This document shows, one piece after another, positions 3,937-45,633 of a DNA stretch of 64,000 nt. The number at the start of each line of letters is the position of its first letter. Within the stretch, counting starts at the first letter, position 1. The DNA is taken from the NCBI GenBank assembly GCA_046351255.1, contig JAXLYU010000014.1, forward strand, positions 187,730 to 251,729, in the 5' to 3' direction. The notes under the pieces are model-generated. The model saw only the letters and a list, made by a program, of their open reading frames with translations, ran no database searches and was not told the DNA's origin. Origin of the DNA: Labilithrix sp. Its GTDB lineage: Bacteria > Myxococcota_A > Polyangia > Polyangiales > Polyangiaceae. Position numbers and translations under genes: made by a program.

Positions 3937-4998
<1,062 letters not shown>

Positions 4999-9298: not shown

Positions 9299-9958
9299 TC
9301 AGTCGCCTTTACCGCCGCACGTGGCGAAGGTCCGAGGGAGGCGCCACTCGCGAATGTTCTCGCTCGAGCAGGGCTGGGCCGCGCTGCAACCCGTCGTCGC
9401 CGCGCTGGGATCGCAGAGCTGCGCCTGCTCGCCGGTGCACGACGCCGCGCATTGCGCCACCACGCCGGTGTCCGTCTTGTTCACGCAGCACACGGTCCCC
9501 GGTCCGCAGTTCGCCTGGGCGGTGCACTTCAGGGTGACGCCGTTCTCGTTCTGCTGTCCGCCGCCGGGTGTGGGGCAGGTCGTTCCCGTGACACACGAGG
9601 AGGTCGCGGCCTGGCCGCCGCCCGCGCCGTTGCCACCCGCGTTGGTCACACAACAAACCTGGGTGGCGAGAGAGCACGAGGCGGTCCCGCAGGGGATGGC
9701 CGTCGTGTCGCCGCCCGGCCCGGTTCCGCCGTCCCCGCTGCTCGTCGTCCCGCCACCGTCGGTAGACGAGCCACTCGATCCGCTCGAGCTGGAGGTGCTC
9801 CCGCCGTCGTTCCCGCCCTGATTTGCCGTGCCCCCATCCCCTCCGCCGTCGGCGTTGGTGAAGAGATCGATCCCGGACGAGCCGCCACATGCAGTGGCGG
9901 AGAGGAGGGTGGCAACGGCACAAGCCAGGGCAAGGCGAGAGGCGCTCATCGACTTCAT
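9299..9958 (-). CDS. Cysteine-rich secreted lipoprotein
   Basis: ATG at 9958 (MKSMSASRLALACAVATLLSATACGG) has a lipobox, then a Gly/Ser-rich linker. The C-terminal 110 aa carry about 16 Cys, including two VCCV motifs. The upstream 66 aa of the track ORF are extension. Confidence 0.6.
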   Translation of the reverse strand: MKSMSASRLALACAVATLLSATACGGSSGIDLFTNADGGGDGGTANQGGNDGGSTSSSSGSSGSSTDGGGTTSSGDGGTGPGGDTTAIPCGTASCSLATQVCCVTNAGGNGAGGGQAATSSCVTGTTCPTPGGGQQNENGVTLKCTAQANCGPGTVCCVNKTDTGVVAQCAASCTGEQAQLCDPSAATTGCSAAQPCSSENIREWRLPRTFATCGGKGD

Positions 9959-10021
9959 GCTCGCGTATAGTGCCGGCGGCATTCGCGCCCCAGGCACGCG
10001 GCGCGTCGATTTCTCCCACCT

Positions 10022-12989: not shown

Positions 12990-14827
12990 GCCGCTTCCGT
13001 CTGTCTGCATGGATCTCGATCTCGGCTTCGATGGCCCTCGTGGCCCTCGCGGCCATCGGCGCCCCCGCCTGCGGTAGCTCCGATGCTGGCGACATACCGC
13101 CCGTGACTACGGCGGACGGAGGCGGCGGGACGTCGACCTCGTCCGGCGCGGCCTCGAGCTCGGGAGCCTCGAGCTCGGGAGCCTCGAGCTCGGGAGCCTC
13201 GAGCTCTGGTGCCTCGAGCTCCTCCTCCTCGAGCTCCGGCTCGCTCGACGCGTCGTCTGACGCGCCGAACGACGCAGCGCTGGCCTGCGGTGACCTCGGC
13301 CAGACGTGCTGCGCGACGGGTACGGCGTGTACCAACGGCGCGTGCGTCGGCGGTCTCTGCCAGCCATGCGGCGGACCGGGTCAGACGTGCTGCGCCGGTC
13401 GCTCGTGCGTCGACGGACAGGCGTGCACCGGAAACGGACGAGGCCTCTGCACCGCCTGTGGTGGCAACGCGCAGACGTGCTGCGCTGGGAACTCGTGCGG
13501 CGCCGGCGGCTGTTGCGTCGGCAACTTCTGCACGTCCTCGGGCAACACCTGTCCGACGGTGGGCGGCACGTGCGGCGCGGGCAGCTGCGGGACCTGCGGC
13601 GCTCTCACGCAACCGTGCTGCGCTGGAAACACGTGCACCGCGGCCGGCGCGACGTGCAACCCAGGCACGAATACCTGCGTCGCTTGTGGTGGCGCCGGGC
13701 AGGCCTGCTGCGGTGGAAATACGTGTACCGCGGCCGGCACGACGTGCGCGGGCAACCAGTGCGTCGCGTGCGGCGGCCCTGGTCAGCCTTGCTGCGCGGG
13801 CAACGCCTGCGGCGCGGGCAACGCCTGCAACGCGGCTCGTCTCTGCGAGGCTTGCGGCGGCAGCGGCGAGATCTGCTGCGCCGGCGCGACGTGCGGCGGG
13901 GGCGGCTGCTGCGACCCGGCCAACGATCACTGCGTGACCGCTGCCTCCACGTGCTCCTTCGGCGGCGCGTGCACGGGCGGCAAGTGCTCCGTCTGCGGCG
14001 CGGCCCACGAGGCGTGCTGTCCGGGCGACACGTGCGGCGGCGGCGGCTGCTGCAGCGGCGGTGTCTGCTACGCGTCGGGCGAATCGATCCCCGGCACGGC
14101 GAACGTCTGCAATGCGGGCACGGCCACCGCGTGTGGTGTCGATGGTCAGGCGTGCTGTGGAGGCGGCGCGTGTACGACGGCCACGTCCTGTTGCGTGGCG
14201 GGCAAGTGCGTGGGCACCGGCACGACCTGCGGCGGTGCGCTCGGCACCTGCTCGAGCGGCAGCTGCTCCACGGGCGGCGGCGCGGGCAACCAGTGTGGCG
14301 CGGCAGGTCAGAACTGCTGCCCCGGCGGCGCGAACAACGCGGCCGACTTCTGCACGGGTCCGGGCCTGACCTGCGGCGACAACGGAAAGTGCGCGTCCTG
14401 CGGCGCTCCGGGCGAACCGTGCTGCGGCGGGTCCGCCTGCAACGGCGGCGGCTGCTGCAACCAGGACACGAACCGCTGCATCGCCTCGGGCGCCGCGTGC
14501 CCCGGCGCCCTCGGCACCTGCTCGAACGGCGGCTGCGGCGCGTGCGGCGGCTTCGGCGAGCCGTGCTGCGGGGGCGACGTCGAGTGCACGGCGCCGTTCA
14601 CGCGCTGCGGTAACAACAACGTCTGCCTCGCGTGTGGCGGCAGCGGCCAGCGCTGCTGCCCGTCGCAAGGCGATGGTGACTTCTGCGGCGCAGGCTTCGT
14701 CTGCCGCGGCGGCGGAGGCAATCCCTCCTCGTGCGTCGCGTGCGGAGGCCCGGGCCAGGCGTGCTGCGCGGGCAACCTCTGCAAGACTGGTAGCTGCACT
14801 GGGGGCACCGGCCTCTGCCCGCCGTGA
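12986..14827 (+). CDS. Secreted cysteine-rich tandem-repeat protein, family A (~20 repeats)
   Basis: ATG at 12986 (GTG at 12980) overlaps the FecR gene end. Signal peptide MSRFRLSAWISISASMALVALAAIGAPAC, then a Ser-rich linker and about 20 copies of CGGxGQxCCxGNxCxxxGxxC. It is a paralogue of 3937..4998. Confidence 0.75.
   Translation: MSRFRLSAWISISASMALVALAAIGAPACGSSDAGDIPPVTTADGGGGTSTSSGAASSSGASSSGASSSGASSSGASSSSSSSSGSLDASSDAPNDAALACGDLGQTCCATGTACTNGACVGGLCQPCGGPGQTCCAGRSCVDGQACTGNGRGLCTACGGNAQTCCAGNSCGAGGCCVGNFCTSSGNTCPTVGGTCGAGSCGTCGALTQPCCAGNTCTAAGATCNPGTNTCVACGGAGQACCGGNTCTAAGTTCAGNQCVACGGPGQPCCAGNACGAGNACNAARLCEACGGSGEICCAGATCGGGGCCDPANDHCVTAASTCSFGGACTGGKCSVCGAAHEACCPGDTCGGGGCCSGGVCYASGESIPGTANVCNAGTATACGVDGQACCGGGACTTATSCCVAGKCVGTGTTCGGALGTCSSGSCSTGGGAGNQCGAAGQNCCPGGANNAADFCTGPGLTCGDNGKCASCGAPGEPCCGGSACNGGGCCNQDTNRCIASGAACPGALGTCSNGGCGACGGFGEPCCGGDVECTAPFTRCGNNNVCLACGGSGQRCCPSQGDGDFCGAGFVCRGGGGNPSSCVACGGPGQACCAGNLCKTGSCTGGTGLCPP
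13151..13225. repeat. 15-bp tandem repeat (gcctcgagctcggga) x3 perfect plus 2 variants, encoding (ASSSG)n linker
   Basis: Read directly from the sequence. Lies inside the Cys-rich gene 12986..14827. Confidence 0.8.
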
Positions 14828-36531: not shown

Positions 36532-37937
36532 TCAGCGGGGCTTTCGCCTCTTCGGTCCGCGATGGAGCCAGCGATAGAGCGTCGAGACGTCGACCTCGAG
36601 GATGGTGGCGGCGGCGACCTTGTCGCCGCCCGTGTGCTGGAGGACGCGCGCGACGTGGCGCATCGTCATTTCGCGGATCGAGGTGTTCAGGGCGTCGGGC
36701 GGGAGAGGGTGGACCGCGGGGTCGCCCGTGACGGACGGCTGGGCGTCGCGGCCTCCGCTCGCCTGCATCGCGGCCACGTCTGCCTCCTCGACGCGCGTCG
36801 TCTTGCCGAGCACCACGAGGCGCTCGATGGTCGCCTGGAGCTCGCGGATGTTGCCGTGCCACGGTAGGCGCAGGAAGAGCTCGTGGGCCTCGGGCGCGAT
36901 CGACTCGACCTGCGAGCGCGGATTGCGTGCGCGCGCGTCGTCGAAGAAGTATTGAATCAGCGAGGGGAGGTCGTCTCTCCTTTGGCGGAGCGCCGGGACC
37001 TCGATCGCGAGGACGTTGAGGCGGAAATAGAGTCCTCGCGGAACTTGCCGGCGCGCACCGCGACGGAGAGATCGCGGTGCGTCGCGGCGACGAACCGGAC
37101 GTCGACCGGGCGCTCGTGATCGCCGCCGACGGGACGGATGCCTTTTCCTTCGAGGACGCGGAGCATGCGGCCCTGGAGCTCGATTGGCAGATCCGCGATC
37201 TCGTCGAGGAAGAGCGTGCCGCCCTCGGCCTCCGCGATGAGGCCGCGGCGGGCGCGGGTCGCGCCCGTGAAGGCGCCGGCGACGTGGCCGAAGAGCTCGC
37301 TGTCGAGGAGCGTGGAAGGGATCGCGCCGGCGTTGACGACGACGTAAGGACGATGACGGCGCGGGCCGCGCGCGTGGATGCGCGCCGCGAGGAGGTCCTT
37401 GCCCGTGCCGGTCTCACCGATGAGCAGCACCGGCGCCGTCGAGTGCGCGACGCGGTCGGCGGACTCGAGGGCGAGCGCGAGGGCGGGGGACGAGCCCACG
37501 ATGGTCCCGGGCGAGAACGGGCGCGGCGGGACCACGCTGCGGCCGCCTTCGAGACGGATGCCCTCGGTTTCGGACACCGCTCGCTCGACGCTCGACTGGA
37601 GCAGCCCGCCGTCGATCGGCCAGAGGAGGTAATCAGAGGCGCCCCGGCGACCGGCTTCGAGGAGGTTCGTCGCGCTGGCATCGCTGCCGACGAGGATGAC
37701 CTTGGTCGCGGGGCTCTGCTCGCGCGTCGAGCTCAGGAGGTCGAAGCCCGCTGGATCTGCGAGCTCGTGGCGGGCCACGACCACGTCGACGGGCTGCTGC
37801 GCAAGAGCGGCCATGGCCGCATCGCCGGTCGAGGCCACCTCGCATGCAAAATGCGGCGCGAGCGCGGTCTGCAGGTGAGCAGCCGCGTGGTCGTCCTCGT
37901 CGACGATCAAGACACGGAACCGGCGTCGCGTGACCAT
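36532..37937 (-). pseudogene. Sigma-54-dependent response regulator (NtrC/Fis family) interrupted by a 1-nt frameshift
   Basis: Receiver domain (VLIVDED...), AAA+ sigma-54 domain (VLLIGETGTGKDLLARAIH, ESELFGH, GGTLFLDEI) and C-terminal Fis HTH (MRHVARVLQHTGGDKVAAATILEVDVSTLYRWL) are all present. The frame breaks in FRED|LYFRLNV (observed GAGGACTCTATTTCC, expected GAGGACCTCTATTTCC) near 37032. Confidence 0.65.
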
Positions 37938-38576: not shown

Positions 38577-38790
38577 CGCGCCCGACGAGATCGCGCACGT
38601 CTTCGAGCGGCACTACCAGGCGCCTTCGAGCGGCCCCGTCCGCAAGCTGGGCTCGGGCCTGGGGCTCTCCATCTGCAAGTCGATCGTCGAGCTCTCCCGC
38701 GGGCGGATCTGGGCGACGAGCCGGCGCGGGAGGGGCACCACGATGATGTTCTCTCTTCCGGTCGCGACGGGGGATGGTCTGCCGGAGTAG
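38540..38790 (+). pseudogene. Histidine-kinase HATPase_c C-terminal fragment
   Basis: VQGSGIGIAPDEIAHVFERHYQAPSSGPVRKLGSGLGLSICKSIVELSRGRIWATSRRGRGTTMMFSLP covers the G1/G2 boxes. No upstream N-box or HisKA lies in frame. Confidence 0.4.
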
Positions 38791-38842
38791 CGAGCTTCGA
38801 TGCGTCGCCGGCGGCTTCGTCTGGTGGTATTCCAAGCGCGCC

Positions 38843-40438
38843 ATGGTCCCCCGTCGCCAGCCGCCCCGGGGGACACCATGGGCGCTCTTGCTCGCGGCGC
38901 TCCTCGCTTGCGCGCCGCCGCGGATGGCGCCGAGCTCCGCGCCGGGCCACGCGCGCACCCTCGTCCTCTACGACGACACGGGGCCGTACGCGTGGCTCGG
39001 AGAGCTCTACGCCGCCGGCGCGGGCGTGCTCGCGAGCCATTTCGGGTCGTGGCGTCCGACGGCGATCTCGGCCTACCAGCGCGGCGCGATGAGCGGCTTC
39101 GACGCCGCCGTATACATCGGGTCGAGCTACGGTCAGCCGCTTCCGCAGGGGTTCATCGACGATGTCATGGCCGGGAAGACGCGCGTCGTCTGGGTGGCGC
39201 AGAACCTGTGGCAGCTCGCGCAGCGAACGCCGGACTTCGACGCGCGTTACGGCTTCCGGCCCGGGCCGGTCGATCGCGGGCCGTTTCACGCCGTGACCTA
39301 CAAGGGCGTCCGTCTCGCGCGTGCGGCGGACGCGGCCGAGGGGCTGACCGCCATCGACGCGATCGCGCCCGACACGGTGAAGGTCCTCGCGCGTGCGGAG
39401 CGGGACGACGGCTCCTCCGTGCCGTGGGCGGTGCGGAGCGGCCATCTCACGTACGTGGCGGAGAACCCGATGGCGTACGTGACGCCCGGCGATCGGTTCC
39501 TGGCGTTCTCCGATCTCCTCTTCGACGCGCTCGCGCCGAGCACGCCGCCGCGGCATCGAGCGGTGGTGAGGATCGAGGACGTCACGGCTCGCTCCTCACC
39601 GGCGGCGCTCCGTGCGGTCGCGGATGCGCTCTCCGCGCGCCGGGTCCCATTCGCGATCGCGCTCATACCCGTTTACGTGAATCCGAGGAGCGGCGAGCGA
39701 CTCTCCATCGCGGACGCGCCGGAGGTGCTGGAGGCGCTCCATTACATGCTCGATCACGGGGGCACGCTCGTGCTTCATGGGTATACGCACCAATACGAAA
39801 TAGAGAAGAATCCGTTCTCGGGCGTGACCGGGGACGACTTCGAGTTTTATCGTGCCCACGTCGACGCGAGCGGCGTCGTGCTGGACGGACCGGTGCCGGG
39901 CGATTCGGCGGCGTGGGCAGAGGATCGCGTCTCGCGCGGGCTCGAAGAGGTGACTCGTGCCGGACTGCCACGGCCGGGGGTCTTCGAGTATCCCCATTAC
40001 GCAGGCTCGCCGGTGGACTCCCGCGCCATCGCGCGGAAGATCGATATCGCATTTCAGCGCGAGACGATCTTCGCCGGCGCGCTCCGCGGCAAGGACGAGG
40101 ACACTTCGCGCTCGCTCGGGCTGCCGCTGCCGTACGTGGTCGACGATCTCTACGGCTGGAGCGTGGTGCCCGAGAACCTCGGGAATTACGCGCCGACGTC
40201 CATTCTCGGCCGCGCCCCCGAGACGCCCGAGCTCATCGTCGAGCGCGCCCGCTCGCTCCTCGTCGTCCGCGACGGCGTGGCGGGGTTCTTCTTTCACCCG
40301 ATCTACGACCGTTCGATCCTCGAGCGCATCGTCGACGACATCACGGCCGTGGGATACACGTTCGTGTCGGTGGAGTCCTTGAGCGCCTCGTCCGCCACCG
40401 CCGCGCGAGCGAGCCGCGGGCCACACGCCGCTCGCTGA
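38843..40438 (+). CDS. DUF2334-type protein (polysaccharide deacetylase superfamily), secreted
   Basis: ATG at 38843 (MVPRRQPPRGTPWALLLAALLACAPP) gives a signal peptide. TLVLHGYTHQYE is the characteristic DUF2334 motif. Total length is 531 aa. Confidence 0.6.
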   Translation: MVPRRQPPRGTPWALLLAALLACAPPRMAPSSAPGHARTLVLYDDTGPYAWLGELYAAGAGVLASHFGSWRPTAISAYQRGAMSGFDAAVYIGSSYGQPLPQGFIDDVMAGKTRVVWVAQNLWQLAQRTPDFDARYGFRPGPVDRGPFHAVTYKGVRLARAADAAEGLTAIDAIAPDTVKVLARAERDDGSSVPWAVRSGHLTYVAENPMAYVTPGDRFLAFSDLLFDALAPSTPPRHRAVVRIEDVTARSSPAALRAVADALSARRVPFAIALIPVYVNPRSGERLSIADAPEVLEALHYMLDHGGTLVLHGYTHQYEIEKNPFSGVTGDDFEFYRAHVDASGVVLDGPVPGDSAAWAEDRVSRGLEEVTRAGLPRPGVFEYPHYAGSPVDSRAIARKIDIAFQRETIFAGALRGKDEDTSRSLGLPLPYVVDDLYGWSVVPENLGNYAPTSILGRAPETPELIVERARSLLVVRDGVAGFFFHPIYDRSILERIVDDITAVGYTFVSVESLSASSATAARASRGPHAAR

Positions 40439-40474: not shown

Positions 40475-40972
40475 TCAGGGCGGGCAGGGGCCGCAGTCGC
40501 GGACGCCGCCACAGCCGTCGTTCATGAGGCCGCACGTGACGCCGGCCTGCGCGCACGTCATCGGTGTGCACGTCGGAGGCGAGCCGCACTGGCTCGGGAC
40601 GCCGCCTCCGCCGCAGGTCTGGCCCGCCGGGCACGTGCCGCAGCTCATGAGGCCGCCACAGCCATTCGACTGCGGGCCGCAGCCGGCCCCGAGCTGGGCG
40701 CATGTCATGGGCGTGCACGAGGACTGACGCACGCATCGCCCCGCCACGCACGTGAGGCTGCGCGAGCACGTGCCGCACAGGAGGAGCCCGCCGCAGCCGT
40801 CCGCGGACGTACCGCACTGGACGCCGAGGCCTGCACACGTGCGCGGGACGCAAGCGGAGAGTCCGAGGTCGGTCTCGACCTCGACGCTCGGCGTGGTCGA
40901 CTCGCTGGGTGCGGTCGCGCACGCGCCGACCGCCAGCATCGCCGCGATGATCGAGATGGATGAACGGATCAT
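40475..40972 (-). CDS. Cys-rich repeat lipoprotein, family B
   Basis: ATG at 40972 (MIRSSISIIAAMLAVGAC, lipobox). Three repeats of T-C-A-x-x-G-x-x-C-G-x-x-x-D/N-G-C-G-G-x-x-x-C-G-x-C. The upstream 43 aa of the track ORF are extension. Confidence 0.6.
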   Translation of the reverse strand: MIRSSISIIAAMLAVGACATAPSESTTPSVEVETDLGLSACVPRTCAGLGVQCGTSADGCGGLLLCGTCSRSLTCVAGRCVRQSSCTPMTCAQLGAGCGPQSNGCGGLMSCGTCPAGQTCGGGGVPSQCGSPPTCTPMTCAQAGVTCGLMNDGCGGVRDCGPCPP

Positions 40973-40988
40973 GTCGTCGTCTCCTTCT

Positions 40989-41393
40989 TCAGGCGCCGCA
41001 CTGAAGGTTGCCGCCGCAGCCGTCCGGCACGAGGCCGACCCGCCCGGCGCACGTGTTCTTGACGCACGTGCACGTCCCCTCGTCGCGAAGCGAGTCGCCA
41101 TTGCACCGGTTGTTCGTCTTTCCGCCCGCCTGGCTGCACGGACAGGCGAAGCGCGTCCCGTTGCCCGCCGGATACACGGCGTTGTCGTTGCATGGGCTGC
41201 CGATCGCGCCGGTCCTTCCCAGGCTGCGGCACGTGTTCAGCGCCTGCTCCTCGAGCGGCGCCGCCGCGGGCGCGACGAGGACGGGCTCGCTCGGCGCCGG
41301 CTCGTCGTCCGCGATGGCGCAGCCCGCCGCCGGCGCCAGCGCCGTCAGAGCAATCACCAGACCGAGGGGCCTCACGCGCGTCCGCTTCGTCAT
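40989..41393 (-). CDS. Cys-rich lipoprotein, family B (one repeat unit)
   Basis: MTKRTRVRPLGLVIALTALAPAAGC has a lipobox. The C-terminus TCAGRVGLVPDGCGGNLQCGA carries the same unit as the downstream gene. The two genes are tandem with a 17-nt gap. Confidence 0.55.
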   Translation of the reverse strand: MTKRTRVRPLGLVIALTALAPAAGCAIADDEPAPSEPVLVAPAAAPLEEQALNTCRSLGRTGAIGSPCNDNAVYPAGNGTRFACPCSQAGGKTNNRCNGDSLRDEGTCTCVKNTCAGRVGLVPDGCGGNLQCGA

Positions 41394-41431
41394 GCTCGAG
41401 CGCTAGCAGCCGACGCTGCGGGCGCCGATGG

Positions 41432-42427
41432 TCATTTTTCTAGAGCCGCGTCTCCCGGGGCCGCCTGAAGGCCCCCCGCGAGGAGCCGGATCAGCTCGCC
41501 GCGCGAGCAGAGGCCCAGCTTTCGCAGCGCGGACTTCAGGCGGACCGCCACCGTCGCGAGCGGGACGCCGAGCTCGTACGCGATGTACTTGAAGGAGTGG
41601 CCGAGCGCAGCGTAGGTGGCGATCGCCTGCTCGTGGGGGGAGAGGAGGCGAACGGGGCTCACGCGCGGATCGTTGCGATGAGCGAGCAGCATGCGCTTCC
41701 CGTCGGCGTCGACGCGCTCCAGGATCGACCAGCGACCCTCGACGAGCGCGGTCCAGATCTCGACGCGCTCCTCCGAGGTCGCGCGCCGGAGCTTCGCGCC
41801 CTCGAGCCGCCGCACGGCGTCGATGAGCGGCGCGCGCACGGCCTCCTCCTTCGTGTCGCCCCGTGCATCGAGGACGCGCCCGTCCGGCGCGAGCACCGCG
41901 TCGACGGAAGGATGCTCCGCCGTCGGCTCGGTCCGGAGCAGCGCGCGCAGCCGCAGGGCGGAGCCGAGATGAGCGCCGATCGCGTCGAGGTGCGCGCGAT
42001 CCCGGGGCGTGGGCGCCTGACCGCGCTGGCAGTGGAAGACGAGCGTCGTCGTCTCGAGGCCGACATCGCCGCCAACGACCGCCCAGGCGTCTGGGGGCTC
42101 GGGAATCGCGCCGGCGTAGGAGCTTCCAAGCTCGCGATGGAGGCGCGGAAAGAAGTCCTGCGCCGACGAGAGCGGCATCGGCGCGTGGATGCGCCCGAAG
42201 TACGGGGCGGGCAGGAGCTCGGCCATCGCGTAGACCGCTCGTGTGGGTAAGCGCGTCCGGTTCGCGACCGCCTGGATCGCCGGCTTCGCGCCCACGTCCG
42301 CCGTGTACGCGGCGATGCCGTCGCCGAAGTCGTAGCCCTGCACCGCATCGACGATGCCCTCGAGCCATGGCTCGTGGTCCTTCGAGAACGCGTAGATCGC
42401 GTCGAGGGCGAGCAGCGGATCCTTCAT
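41432..42427 (-). CDS. LuxR-family transcriptional regulator with a 250-aa uncharacterised N-terminal domain
   Basis: The C-terminal HTH reads LSPHEQAIATYAALGHSFKYIAYELGVPLATVAVRLKSALRKLG. Confidence 0.7.
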   Translation of the reverse strand: MKDPLLALDAIYAFSKDHEPWLEGIVDAVQGYDFGDGIAAYTADVGAKPAIQAVANRTRLPTRAVYAMAELLPAPYFGRIHAPMPLSSAQDFFPRLHRELGSSYAGAIPEPPDAWAVVGGDVGLETTTLVFHCQRGQAPTPRDRAHLDAIGAHLGSALRLRALLRTEPTAEHPSVDAVLAPDGRVLDARGDTKEEAVRAPLIDAVRRLEGAKLRRATSEERVEIWTALVEGRWSILERVDADGKRMLLAHRNDPRVSPVRLLSPHEQAIATYAALGHSFKYIAYELGVPLATVAVRLKSALRKLGLCSRGELIRLLAGGLQAAPGDAALEK

Positions 42428-42431
42428 CCGA

Positions 42432-42731
42432 TCACGACCGGGCCGGGCGACGCGACATCGCGAGCACGAGCTCGTGGCGCGACCCGACGCCGAACTTCTC
42501 GAGGAGCGCCGCGACCTGATTCGCGACCGTGCGCGGCGACGTGCCGCGCTTCTTTGCGATCTCCGCGTTGGTCTTTCCGAGCGCGATTCCCCGAAGGATT
42601 TCCTCCTCCGACGCGCTCAGCGACGGCGGGGGCACGACGGGCCACGTGAGGATGGCGAGCCGTTCTCCTGCGACATCGGCGACCTCGATCTCGACGTCGT
42701 CTGGAACGACGATCTGCGGGGAGCGCTTCAC
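42432..42731 (-). CDS. Small LuxR-type HTH protein
   Basis: LSASEEEILRGIALGKTNAEIAKKRGTSPRTVANQVAALLEKFG is a classic LuxR/GerE HTH. The stop overlaps the start of the downstream LuxR gene. Confidence 0.55.
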   Translation of the reverse strand: MKRSPQIVVPDDVEIEVADVAGERLAILTWPVVPPPSLSASEEEILRGIALGKTNAEIAKKRGTSPRTVANQVAALLEKFGVGSRHELVLAMSRRPARS

Positions 42732-42828
42732 AGCAAGGTCAAGTGTTCACGTGGTCCCCACGAGCGCAATAGTCATTTTTCCAGCGGCACTTTGAAGCCG
42801 ATCGTCCCATCGCCGTAGGATCGGAGCC

Positions 42829-43863
42829 GTGGGGACACGCATCGAGCGGATCGTGGAGGCAGTGTACTCGTTCGGTGCGAGCGAGGAAGCATGGCTCGAA
42901 GGGGTGGTCGACGCGCTCGAGCCGTATCGACTGAGCGGCGGAGTCGTCGCGTACACCTCCTCGCTCGGCGAGGCGACGTCGCTTCGGACGCTCGTCAATC
43001 GTAGCGACGTGTCGTCGGCCGACGTGCGCGCGAACGCGCATAGCCAGCCACCGCCGCTCTACCGGCGCTTCCATTCGCCCATGCCGGTCAATTACAGCCC
43101 GCGCTTCTTTCCCCAGGTCGCCGACGAGTTCGGTATCGACTACGAGCGGGTCGTGCGGGAGCTGCCGTACGAGCTGCCCATCATGTGGGGCGTCTGCGGA
43201 GGCGACGCCGGGATCGAGAGCGCGCTCGTCACCTTCTCGTGCAAGGCGGGCGAAGAGCTCGCCGCGCGCGACCGCCGCACGCTCGACGCGGTCGGCGCGC
43301 ATCTCGGGTCGGCGCTCCGGCTGCGATCCGTCTTCTCGGGTTCGATCGCTCCTGCACGGTCCCCCTCCGGCGACCATCCCGCGGTCGAGGCCGTCCTCGC
43401 GCCCGACGGCAAGGTGCTCGAGGCGCGAGACGAGCTCCGTGACGCCGACGCGCGCGCGCCGCTCATCGACGCGCTCCGGCGGAGCGAGCGGGCGAGCCTG
43501 CGTCGCGCGACGCCCGAGGAGCGCCTCGACGTGTGGACGGCGCTCATCCAGTGCCGCTGGTCGATCGTGGAGACGGTCGAGCGCGACGGCAAGCGCATGC
43601 ACCTCGTCTGCCGCAACGATCCGCGCGGCGGCTCCCTTCGTGCGCTCACCGAACGCGAGCGCCTCGTCGTGAGCCTCGCCGCGCTCGGGCATCCGTACAA
43701 GTACGTCGCGTACGAGCTCGGGATCCCGCTCTCGAGCGTGGCCGCCACGCTGAAGACCGCGCTCGCGAAGCTCGGCCTCGCCTCGCGCGCGGAGCTGATT
43801 CGCCTCTACGCACGGGTCGTCGCGCAGGGGCCGGTGGGCGGACCTACCGAGCCGCCAGGCTGA
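42829..43863 (+). CDS. LuxR-family transcriptional regulator, paralogue of 41432..42427
   Basis: GTG start at 42829. The N-terminal blocks (AWLEGVVDALEPY..., DAVGAHLGSALRLR, APLIDALRRSE...RRATPEERLDVWTALIQCRWSIVE) are shared with the divergent paralogue. The C-terminal HTH reads LTERERLVVSLAALGHPYKYVAYELGIPLSSVAATLKTALAKLG. Confidence 0.7.
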   Translation: MGTRIERIVEAVYSFGASEEAWLEGVVDALEPYRLSGGVVAYTSSLGEATSLRTLVNRSDVSSADVRANAHSQPPPLYRRFHSPMPVNYSPRFFPQVADEFGIDYERVVRELPYELPIMWGVCGGDAGIESALVTFSCKAGEELAARDRRTLDAVGAHLGSALRLRSVFSGSIAPARSPSGDHPAVEAVLAPDGKVLEARDELRDADARAPLIDALRRSERASLRRATPEERLDVWTALIQCRWSIVETVERDGKRMHLVCRNDPRGGSLRALTERERLVVSLAALGHPYKYVAYELGIPLSSVAATLKTALAKLGLASRAELIRLYARVVAQGPVGGPTEPPG

Positions 43864-43884
43864 ACGCGTCTCGGTCGCGCGCGG

Positions 43885-44235
43885 TCAGTTCGAGCACGTG
43901 TGCGACTTGCACCCGTCGCTGCAACACTCGTCGTTGTCGTCGCAGGTCTCGCCGTTCGCCTTGCACGTCGGGCTCGGCGTCTTGGCGTCCTCCGGATCGT
44001 GCCGCGCATCCGTGGCGGACGCCTCCGTCGAGGCTTCGACCGGCGGCGGTCCCCCCGACGACACGTCGACCTCGTCCCCGCGAAGGGTCGCGCCGGACGA
44101 GCTGGCGCCGTCGGCTCGTCCTCCGTCGTCGGTCGCGGGAGAAGACGTGCCCGCGAGGTCGCCGGTGTCGACGAGCAGCGTGCATCCAGCGAGGAGGGCA
44201 CAGACGCACCATCCCGCGAGCAACGCTCTCCGCAT
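43885..44235 (-). CDS. Small lipoprotein with C-terminal knottin-like (inhibitor cystine knot) motif
   Basis: Lipobox MRRALLAGWCVCALLAGC, acidic and Ser-rich linker. The C-terminus CKANGETCDDNDECCSDGCKSHTC has C-x6-C-x5-CC-x3-C-x4-C spacing. Confidence 0.55.
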   Translation of the reverse strand: MRRALLAGWCVCALLAGCTLLVDTGDLAGTSSPATDDGGRADGASSSGATLRGDEVDVSSGGPPPVEASTEASATDARHDPEDAKTPSPTCKANGETCDDNDECCSDGCKSHTCSN

Positions 44236-44370: not shown

Positions 44371-44776
44371 ATGAAGCTCTCGCTCGCTACGCTGTCGGCA
44401 GCAATTTCGGTAATGACGCTAGGGGCTTGCGCCACCGCCGCCGCCGAGGACAGCGGCTCGACCGAGGAGCGTCACCGTCACGCAGCGCGCCTCGCCGCCG
44501 TCGGCGGGCGTCTCCGTCATTCACGTCTGCGTCGATGACGACCTCGACGCGTGCGCGACCAACACGGGCGCGCCCCCGATGCCCTTCACCGTCGACGTGC
44601 CCGCCGATGGGCGCGAGTCGGTCTACGAGATGAACCTGCGCGCTTCACGGAGCAGCGCGCCCGTGCGCGTGCATCGGTTCGTGCTCGGCGACGGCGCGCC
44701 TCGCATCGAGACCGATCTCGACTCCGCTCACGCGACGCCGTTCGTGGCGCGCGCGTCGTGGTCGCCGCCGAAGTAG
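44371..44776 (+). pseudogene. Possible frameshifted small secreted lipoprotein
   Basis: ATG at 44371 gives MKLSLATLSAAISVMTLGACATAAAEDSGSTEE, then Arg-rich nonsense to a stop at 44538. The +1 frame from about 44470 reads ...VTVTQRASPPSAGVSVIHVCVDDDLDACATNTGAPPMPFTVDVPADGRESVYEMNLRASRSSAPVRVHRFVLGDGAPRIETDLDSAHATPFVARASW to 44776. Alternatively only the 65-aa ORF 44579..44776 is real. Confidence 0.3.
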
Positions 44777-45633
44777 ATCCGCTTCATCAACCTCCGGTTG
44801 TGCACGAGCGGAGCGTCGAACTTGCCGAGGCGCATGCCCGTGAGCTCGAACGGTGTCTCCGCCACGTGGTGGATGAAGCGCTGATCGTCCATGACCTCGC
44901 TCGCGCCGATGCGCGGCACCACGGCGTGGACCACCGGCGCGAGGAAGCCGAAGGGCGCCTCGATCTTCGCATAGGCGATGACGTGGAGCACCGTCGTCCG
45001 CTCGTCGAGCGGGACGAAGTAGATCGCGAAGCGGCTCGTGACGGGGCGCCGGCGTCCGTCCGGGCTCTCCCAGTGCAGCGTGTACACCGTGCGCACCGGA
45101 TCGAGCGTCGTGACCCAGGCGTTGTGAAACGTGTCGCCCCATCGCACGAGGATGAGCGGCGTGAGCACGTGCGGGCGCTGGATGCCGCGGTAGCGCACCT
45201 TCGTGCGGTCCTCGAGCTTCTCGTACTCGAAGTCGACCTTCGCTGCGGCCGACTCCTGCCAGCCGAGGAAGGAGTGCACCCAGGGCGTGTGCTCGTCCTC
45301 GCTGAAGTTGTCGAAGGCCACGTGCTGCGGCGCCGGGAAGACGACGCGATCCGTGCCCGCGCGCTCGAAGCCCTCCGCGCGAAAGTCGACCGCGGGGCGC
45401 TCGGGCTCGGGGAAGCGCGCGTCCGCGAGCCAGATCGTCCCTTCGTGCTCGAGCACGCGGGGCCTTCGGTGCGCGGCCTCGCACTCCGCGCGCACCGCGG
45501 TCCCCGCGCGGCGGACACGATAGGTCTCGCCCGCGAGCTTCGTCGTGAGCTCGTCGCGCAGCTCCGTCGAGGTCGCGACCGGGTGATAGAAGCGCAGCAC
45601 GCTCTCCGGCGTCTTCGTCGTCGCGGTCATCAT
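44728..45633 (-). CDS. Hypothetical 301-aa protein, probable catalytic or partner subunit of the upstream Rieske-reductase fusion
   Basis: ATGATG at 45633 lies 33 nt after the upstream stop, so the genes are translationally coupled. Conserved His are present (HTPWVHSFLGW, HNAWVTTLDP, HWESPDG). No family could be named from memory. Confidence 0.55.
   Translation of the reverse strand: MMTATTKTPESVLRFYHPVATSTELRDELTTKLAGETYRVRRAGTAVRAECEAAHRRPRVLEHEGTIWLADARFPEPERPAVDFRAEGFERAGTDRVVFPAPQHVAFDNFSEDEHTPWVHSFLGWQESAAAKVDFEYEKLEDRTKVRYRGIQRPHVLTPLILVRWGDTFHNAWVTTLDPVRTVYTLHWESPDGRRRPVTSRFAIYFVPLDERTTVLHVIAYAKIEAPFGFLAPVVHAVVPRIGASEVMDDQRFIHHVAETPFELTGMRLGKFDAPLVHNRRLMKRIYFGGDHDARATNGVA

Follow-up and report, generated by a model that had tools for sequence, protein, structure and literature searches.

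Do the LuxR-type regulators and the cysteine-rich lipoproteins that are encoded side by side in a Labilithrix genome form a regulon, and does one of these lipoproteins end in a cystine knot? Both questions are raised by positions 40475-44235 of a 64,000-nucleotide (nt) stretch of contig JAXLYU010000014.1, referred to here as the window. The open reading frame (ORF) listing, the GC content per codon position and the translations place six consecutive genes in this locus. The NCBI locus tags, U0270_30180 to U0270_30205, are spaced as six genes require, indicating that the number is exactly six. The GC content at third codon positions (GC3) is 0.86-0.91 in all six genes, in a window of ~70% GC. 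The window proteins match hypothetical proteins of a metagenome-assembled genome of Labilithrix sp. (Polyangia, Myxococcota) with full identity. Three of the genes encode LuxR-type regulators and three encode Cys-rich lipoproteins of 165, 134 and 116 amino acids (aa), the first two of which carry units of a repeat termed family B. An earlier reading of this DNA from its letters (the sequence-only reading) described LuxR paralogues that bracket the lipoprotein genes, and the elements it named were located by ORF listing, motif scan and translation. The reading preferred here, with a probability of about 0.6, is that a conserved LuxR module is juxtaposed with three lineage-specific disulfide-rich lipoprotein genes.

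The LuxR module and its neighbours

The small LuxR gene (42432-42731, minus strand) encodes 99 aa with a GerE helix-turn-helix (HTH) only and lies 4 nt upstream of LuxR1 (41432-42427, minus strand; 331 aa), in which a ~250-aa N-domain precedes a GerE/LuxR HTH at residues 262-315. The genes of the 134-aa and 165-aa lipoproteins follow on the same strand, and the gaps between these four genes are 4, 38 and 13 nt. LuxR2 (42829-43863, plus strand; 344 aa), a paralogue of LuxR1 with a GerE match, diverges from the small LuxR gene across 97 bp (42732-42828), a region presumed to be a shared promoter/operator. At its other end LuxR2 is convergent with the gene of the 116-aa lipoprotein, the stop codons being 21 nt apart, so that no shared transcript of these two genes is possible. 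LuxR1 and LuxR2 share 48% identity over 320 aa (E = 5e-107) and appear at the DNA level as a 368-nt inverted repeat (I1). The divergent orientation of the two paralogues and the end of LuxR2 beside the 116-aa lipoprotein gene are as the sequence-only reading described them. Its inventory of two paralogues also stands, but the third LuxR gene, encoding the 99-aa protein, was overlooked.

Only the C-terminal ~55 aa of the large LuxRs match a known family, GerE, and the best PDB matches are the DNA-binding domains of NarL, GerE and FixJ. The GerE scores of the three regulators are 29.8, 46.2 and 29.8 bits (29.8 for LuxR1) against a Pfam cut-off of 23.5, and the small LuxR matches Pfam GerE with an E value of 3.6e-12. 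The NCBIfam matches of the LuxRs are confined to the HTH and fall far under the cut-offs. Searches with the window proteins and 45 family members showed no match of the ~250-aa N-domain in Pfam, NCBIfam or PDB sequences. Neither the autoinducer-binding domain (PF03472) nor the receiver domain (PF00072) was found in the window LuxRs or the 45 members at E <= 1, indicating that LuxR1 and LuxR2 are neither response regulators nor autoinducer-binding LuxRs. In comparison with the LuxR/FixJ/NarL regulators, the window LuxRs have the C-terminal GerE HTH in common but lack both the receiver and the autoinducer-binding domain, and the 99-aa protein is essentially a stand-alone GerE-like HTH. The ~250-aa N-domain presumably serves sensing or interaction. 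It had been called novel, which holds for the Pfam, NCBIfam and PDB sequence comparisons, but the sequence family itself is already widespread.

The large-LuxR family has at least 66 members with 33-70% identity across Myxococcota, including Pyxidicoccus, Archangium, Anaeromyxobacter, Kofleriaceae and Haliangiales, often with several paralogues per genome. A small HTH-only LuxR of ~90-110 aa lies directly upstream of 12/34 large LuxR genes, usually with an overlap of 4-23 nt. This small and large pair occurs in the comparison loci (L-numbers; P-numbers denote proteins found in searches) L008, L009, L011, L013, L014, L022, L025, L027, L030, L038 and L041. The closest relative of the window module, L038, keeps the whole arrangement, with LuxR2 divergent from the small LuxR and LuxR1 downstream of the latter, at 69%, 76% and 70% identity, respectively. 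Thus, the three genes are a conserved, Myxococcota-specific regulator module. The recurrent position of the small gene upstream of the large one suggests a two-protein regulator, in which the small LuxR could act as a heteromer partner or a competitor. To our knowledge, no system with such a recurrent pairing has been described.

The conservation of the module does not extend to the lipoprotein genes. In L038, the gene after LuxR1 encodes a Ser/Thr kinase and is convergent with LuxR1, and the lipoproteins are absent. The family-B motif was found in 0/34 related LuxR loci, and a LuxR gene in 0/5 other family-B contexts, which hold an RHS gene with a reverse transcriptase, LigD/Ku, a phage integrase, a type IV secretion system coupling protein and PQQ propellers. 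Conserved synteny of LuxR and family-B genes was thus rejected for the 34 LuxR loci, for L038 and for the five family-B contexts. The regulation of the lipoprotein genes by the LuxRs, as had been proposed, is an argument from adjacency in this genome, and none of the related loci combines these LuxRs with family B.

The arrangement could alternatively represent a functional regulon, in which LuxR1, LuxR2 and the small LuxR would be dedicated regulators of the three lipoprotein genes. The gaps of 4, 38 and 13 nt are operon-like and make it probable that, in this genome, one transcript covers the small LuxR, LuxR1 and both family-B genes. In several loci a secreted, Cys-rich or lipoprotein gene also follows the LuxR pair, as in L001 (RCC1 and PLL lipoproteins), L041 (a MopE-like Cys-rich lipoprotein) and L008. 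Counted with a crude gene caller, Cys-rich neighbours of LuxR genes showed a weak enrichment with the window included (9/64 vs. 17/298, p = 0.03). However, the enrichment is not robust and disappears when the window is excluded (7/62 vs. 14/239, p = 0.16). Besides the lack of family B at the 34 LuxR loci, the lack of LuxR genes at the five other family-B genes and the kinase gene after the closest orthologous module, the convergence of LuxR2 with the 116-aa gene also argues against a common regulon. A search of the 97-bp region and of the sequences upstream of the lipoprotein genes for a shared operator or palindrome gave nothing convincing, and the 97-bp region has no sigma-70 consensus. A dedicated regulon is therefore unlikely, and the bracketing of the lipoprotein genes by LuxR genes most likely reflects a chance gene order of this lineage rather than a conserved regulon.

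Some points weigh against the reading of a conserved module that is merely juxtaposed with the lipoprotein genes. A loose functional link may exist between the LuxR family and secreted Cys-rich proteins. Promoter and terminator consensus sequences are uninformative in 70% GC DNA, and the operon assignment could be wrong. The function proposed below for the family-B units is argued from their architecture alone.

Two of the comparison loci show further LuxR arrangements. On an 826-kb JGI contig (L001:319-8321), four large LuxR paralogues and one small LuxR lie within 7 kb, interleaved with an RCC1-repeat protein, whose Cys-rich N-terminal region has 28 Cys, and with a PLL beta-propeller lipoprotein. 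In the cultured Pyxidicoccus xibeiensis (JAJVKV010000004.1, L041:3685-7273), a 735-aa lipoprotein with coiled-coil, transmembrane-like and Cys-rich CNGxDDDCDG (MopE-like) repeat regions is encoded 40 nt downstream of a small and large LuxR pair.

The lipoprotein signals and the family-B module

All three Cys-rich proteins begin with a type-II signal peptide, in which a basic n-region and a hydrophobic h-region precede the lipobox, defined as [LVI][ASTVI][GAS]C. The signals are MRRALLAGWCVCALLAG↓C, MIRSSISIIAAMLAVGA↓C and MTKRTRVRPLGLVIALTALAPAAG↓C, the last of which has a weaker lipobox. The lipobox is AVGA↓C in the 165-aa protein, AAG↓C in the 134-aa protein and LLAG↓C in the 116-aa protein. 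Each lipoprotein would leave the cytoplasm through Sec, receive its lipid at the lipobox Cys and form its disulfides by oxidation in the periplasm. Sorting in Myxococcus follows a rule based on Lys at position +2. The three lipoproteins have Ala or Thr at this position instead of Lys, which points to sorting to the outer membrane.

The 165-aa lipoprotein (40475-40972, minus strand; U0270_30180, annotated by NCBI as a hypothetical protein) starts at MIRSS, with AAGGAG 8 nt before the ATG, and its gene has a GC3 of 0.89. Motif scan and conserved Cys columns delimit three family-B units on the minus strand. Unit 1 (CVPRTCAGLGVQCGTSADGCGGLLLCGTCSRSLTCVAGRC, 40733-40852) has 8 Cys. Unit 2 (CTPMTCAQLGAGCGPQSNGCGGLMSCGTCPAGQTCGGGGVPSQCG, 40583-40717), also with 8 Cys, is the canonical full unit, and unit 3 (CTPMTCAQAGVTCGLMNDGCGGVRDCGPCPP, 40478-40570), with 6 Cys, forms the C-terminus of the protein. 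The 134-aa lipoprotein (40989-41393, minus strand) has 11 Cys, and the GC contents of its gene at the three codon positions are 0.65/0.62/0.91. Its C-terminus is one truncated and degenerate family-B unit (CVKNTCAGRVGLVPDGCGGNLQCGA, 40992-41066, minus strand), which was identified by a profile hidden Markov model (HMM) and by DNA repeats. The family-B HMM gives 12.4 bits to residues 75-133 of this protein, and the DNA repeat families D1-D3 relate the unit to the others with 68-79% identity. Compared with the motif given in the sequence-only reading, it is without the third Cys ('CG') and the last one. Of the three copies and one copy that had been reported for the two tandem lipoproteins, the three copies are thus present, but the single copy of the 134-aa protein is truncated and without two of the motif Cys.

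Sequence searches with the 165-aa protein yielded 66 homologues at E <= 1e-3, with E values down to 7e-58. Nearly all of them are from soil or other metagenomes, and organism names, Labilithrix and Polyangia, are attached to only two. One homologue carries the misnomer 'tryptophan synthase alpha chain'. Full-length members typically consist of a lipoprotein signal, a low-complexity linker and 2-6 units of ~45 aa; across Polyangia lipoproteins the copy number is 1-6. The consensus is CxPxTCAxxGxxCGxxxDGCGGxLxCGxCxxxQTCGGGGxPxxCG, and a full unit has 8 Cys. In an alignment of 36 sequences, conservation is complete or at least 90% for 21/22 mature Cys of the 165-aa protein, in agreement with the earlier description of family B as a set of Cys-rich lipoproteins. 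Neither the 165-aa protein nor the 36 members were matched by any Pfam or NCBIfam model, TIGR02232 included (E <= 1). Family B is thus a real, conserved and uncurated disulfide-rich module.

The AlphaFold2 model calculated with the family-B alignment shows one short helix and two beta-hairpins per unit. The predicted local distance difference test score (pLDDT) is 89-98 across the units, and the predicted template modelling score (pTM) is 0.44. High confidence within the units together with this pTM fits independently folded beads whose mutual orientation is undefined. The 165-aa protein would accordingly consist of a short linker and three independently folded mini-domains like beads on a string, and the 134-aa protein combines a distinct Cys-rich region with a decayed family-B unit. 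The beads are most likely a rigid extracytoplasmic scaffold for binding or spacing. A phmmer search of the PDB sequences for an analogue of family B returned only a spike-Fc fusion, a spurious match, and the Foldseek matches to PDB folds (TNFR, EGF-like and hirustasin-like) all had E > 1. On a more speculative reading, family B would be a new disulfide-rich fold without a solved analogue, and the small and large LuxR pair would be a new two-protein regulator.

The closest described likeness is TIGR02232 (Myxo_disulf_rpt), the disulfide-rich repeat of proteins such as the TraA stalk. Like family B, it forms tandem disulfide-rich modules of myxobacterial surface proteins and is of the same general kind. 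However, family B is not matched by its model, has a motif of its own (CxPxTCxxxGxxCGxxxDGCGGxxxCGxCxxxQxCGGGGxxxxCG) and occurs in small lipoproteins that contain little else.

In one of the other family-B contexts (L002:4392-7319), the family-B lipoprotein P0040 is encoded just downstream of an RVT_1 reverse-transcriptase gene and near a large RHS/YD-shell toxin gene. A diversity-generating retroelement was considered for this locus and rejected, as no direct repeats of at least 40 nt were found.

The six-Cys tail of the 116-aa lipoprotein

The 116-aa lipoprotein (43885-44235, minus strand; U0270_30205) consists of the LLAG↓C signal peptide, a ~72-aa linker rich in D, S, A, T, G and P, a 24-aa six-Cys tail and a final SN. 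The tail, CKANGETCDDNDECCSDGCKSHTC, was located by motif scan at 43894-43965 (minus strand) and has the framework C-x6-C-x5-CC-x3-C-x4-C; residues ~88-116 of the protein read SPTCKANGETCDDNDECCSDGCKSHTCSN. The protein would tether a strongly acidic 24-aa mini-domain with six Cys to the membrane through a disordered linker of ~70 aa.

The gene could be a chance ORF in high-GC DNA, as no homologues were found, no obvious Shine-Dalgarno sequence precedes it and many long ORFs overlap nearby. However, GC3 is 0.855 in this frame vs. 0.62-0.75 in the five alternative ORFs that overlap it, and the frame plot agrees with the frame from 43880 to about 44120. The n-region, the h-region and the lipobox are canonical, and the NCBI, ENA and Logan pipelines called the identical protein on 12 contigs. 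A chance ORF is therefore very improbable.

A word-indexed search of 5.8 billion clusters returned the 116-aa protein itself only. An exhaustive phmmer search of 1.84 billion representatives for remote homologues gave P0134 and P0135 only, and both were rejected as spurious, being repetitive matches to the signal and linker region. The tail was also compared with the two repeat families of the window. As a diverged unit of family A, the repeat of two other lipoproteins in the window, it scores -2.1 bits with an HMM built from 18 window units. With family B it scores 3.9 bits, and most of that alignment covers the signal peptide and the linker. Both assignments were rejected. The 116-aa protein is thus a young orphan.

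Does the tail form an inhibitor cystine knot (ICK)? Its C-C-CC-C-C framework, with loops of 6, 5, 0, 3 and 4 residues, is within the range of known knottins. Loops 1-4 (6, 5, 0 and 3) equal those of omega-hexatoxin-Hv1a in the alignment with 1AXH. The loops of omega-conotoxin MVIIA are 6, 6, 0, 3 and 4 residues, in agreement with the tail in loops 1, 3, 4 and 5. Loop lengths within one residue of MVIIA and equal to loops 1-4 of Hv1a make a knot sterically plausible. However, a loose ICK regular expression that matches the tail also matches 13 family-A units within the window, so the spacing by itself does not discriminate. The classic ICK spacing that had been noted is thus present, but its discriminating power is weak.

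The similarity of the tail to toxins goes slightly beyond the spacing. At E <= 10, the Pfam families matched are Conotoxin, Conotoxin_I2, Toxin_29 and Toxin_18, all of them knottin toxins. The Conotoxin match (E = 0.011-0.019) reaches 16.4-17.1 bits, below the gathering score of 25.1, and the other matches have E values of 0.11-0.62; no curated knottin family in Pfam was matched above threshold. The two best PDB sequence matches are omega-atracotoxin-Hv1 (E = 0.23) and a venom peptide (E = 0.99). In the former alignment, with atracotoxin-Hv1a (1AXH), 11/23 residues of the tail SPTCKANGETCDDNDECCSDGC are identical. Two full shuffles of the tail matched no ICK family, and three of four Cys-preserving shuffles matched Conotoxin with 11-15 bits. 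These controls indicate that the match between the tail and the toxins is mostly due to the Cys framework, with few extra bits from the other residues.

Structure prediction, which had been proposed for both the family-B unit and the tail, was confident for the former only. The single-sequence AlphaFold2 model of the tail has a pLDDT of 58.6 and no strands, and this low-confidence model has no Foldseek match in the PDB.

The evidence above bears on the proposal of the sequence-only reading, a membrane-tethered knottin with disulfides I-IV, II-V and III-VI that inhibits a protease or a channel. The near-toxin loop lengths, the best PDB match, the restriction of the four Pfam matches to ICK toxins and the empty results of the full shuffles all agree with it, and predicted bacterial knottins in the KNOTTIN database provide a precedent (PMC5753296). 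However, every similarity is under the curated thresholds, most Cys-preserving shuffles reproduce the Conotoxin match, the model lacks beta-strands and fold matches, and neither homologue search found a relative. In addition, the net charge of the peptide is about -4, unlike that of most channel-blocking knottins, and there is no sign of an inhibitor target. The proposal in this form is doubtful.

A non-knotted mini-domain, disulfide-rich or metal-binding, in a recent and fast-evolving accessory lipoprotein is a serious possibility, although still at somewhat less than even odds; the ICK likeness would then be coincidental. The protein is a strict orphan, and both the window and the lineage are rich in unrelated Cys-rich lipoproteins, 13 family-A units of which fit the ICK-like expression. 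The Asp-rich loop DDNDE could bind cations. In L001 (1381-1629, minus strand), an 82-aa lipoprotein is encoded convergently to a LuxR paralogue; its lipobox is LVAG↓C, and an acidic linker leads to the six-Cys tail CPPVQPIPSCWPYNTRCTTTVILGCRRRTCVC. It thus has the position and the architecture of the 116-aa protein, but its framework, C-x8-C-x6-C-x7-C-x4-C-x-C, is different, and it has no Pfam hit. On the other hand, the framework of the window tail lies within one residue of the O-superfamily and hexatoxin loops, only ICK families were matched, and the tail is not a family-A unit.

Judged from its sequence, the single most likely fold of the tail is the ICK, which is a plausible prediction. 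A true cystine knot in the tail is nevertheless rather improbable. Unlikely, too, is the more specific picture of a lipid-anchored bacterial knottin that would be held on the outer membrane by a flexible tether, would be of convergent or transferred eukaryotic origin and might serve predation, kin discrimination or the capture of metals or ligands.

Comparison with described systems places the tail closest to the ICK toxins, the O-superfamily conotoxins (PF02950) and omega-hexatoxin/atracotoxin-Hv1a (PDB 1AXH), with which it has the six-Cys framework in common. It differs from them in its bacterial host, in a lipid anchor on a long disordered linker instead of release from a propeptide and in its acidic peptide. 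Moreover, the tail scores under the family thresholds. The predicted bacterial knottins of the KNOTTIN database were assigned from sequence alone, with no experimental structure (PMC5753296). The 116-aa protein, in contrast, has no detectable relatives. Bacterial defensins of myxobacteria and actinobacteria are also disulfide-rich mini-proteins of eukaryote type and occur sporadically in myxobacteria (PMC8819291). Unlike the 116-aa lipoprotein, they have the CS-alpha-beta fold with another Cys framework, belong to a family with homologues and are secreted as peptides. A literature search for knottins in myxobacteria gave nothing relevant. The idea of a bacterial knottin is thus unusual, but not unprecedented.

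What is new at this locus is modest and comprises an uncurated repeat family with a confident model, an orphan knottin-like lipoprotein and an undescribed pairing of small and large LuxRs. Knottins are prized as ultra-stable scaffolds. If present, a membrane-tethered bacterial knottin would widen the range over which the fold is known and could be used as a novel format for display, and the tail would give structure determination its first tractable bacterial knottin. Family B, common in Polyangia and covered by no curated database, is a cheap target for structural genomics, and its recognition would help to correct the 'tryptophan synthase alpha chain' misannotation. The small and large LuxR pairing gives a starting point for testing how the Myxococcota-specific regulator family functions. 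Current understanding stays unchanged unless a knot or a function is demonstrated.

Neighbouring genes and related contigs

Upstream of the 116-aa gene, on the plus strand, lies an apparent frameshifted small lipoprotein gene (44371-44776). The signal MKLSLATLSAAISVMTLGA↓CATAAAEDSGSTEE is in one frame, and from about 44455-44470 onward the high-GC3 coding frame is another, which contains VTVTQRASPPSAGVSVIHVCVDDDLDACATNTGAPPMPFTVDVPADGRESVYEMNLR and ends with SWSPPK and a stop. This frame overlaps the 3' end of a 301-aa gene on the minus strand (44728-45633), and the region is either a pseudogene or an assembly error of the metagenome-assembled genome. On the other side of the locus, a 554-aa DUF2334 protein (38774-40438, plus strand; polysaccharide-deacetylase-like, E = 5e-49), with a possible lipobox, is encoded convergently to the family-B genes. 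Upstream of it, a 326-aa ORF (36957-37937, minus strand) resembles a sigma-54-type response regulator in its sequence.

The window encodes a great many Cys-rich lipoproteins. Two large family-A lipoproteins, with the motif CxxCGxxGQxCCxGxxCxxGxxC, are encoded on the plus strand at 4186-4977 and 13343-14608 and have 63 and 103 Cys, respectively, with at least 18 units between them. A further Cys-rich lipoprotein is encoded at 9299-9982 on the minus strand. In an ENA contig of 74,298 nt, P0015 and P0133 are garbled, fused translations of the 134-aa and 165-aa lipoproteins and of LuxR1, and they evidently stem from an assembly of lower quality, rich in indels, of the same organism or a very close one.

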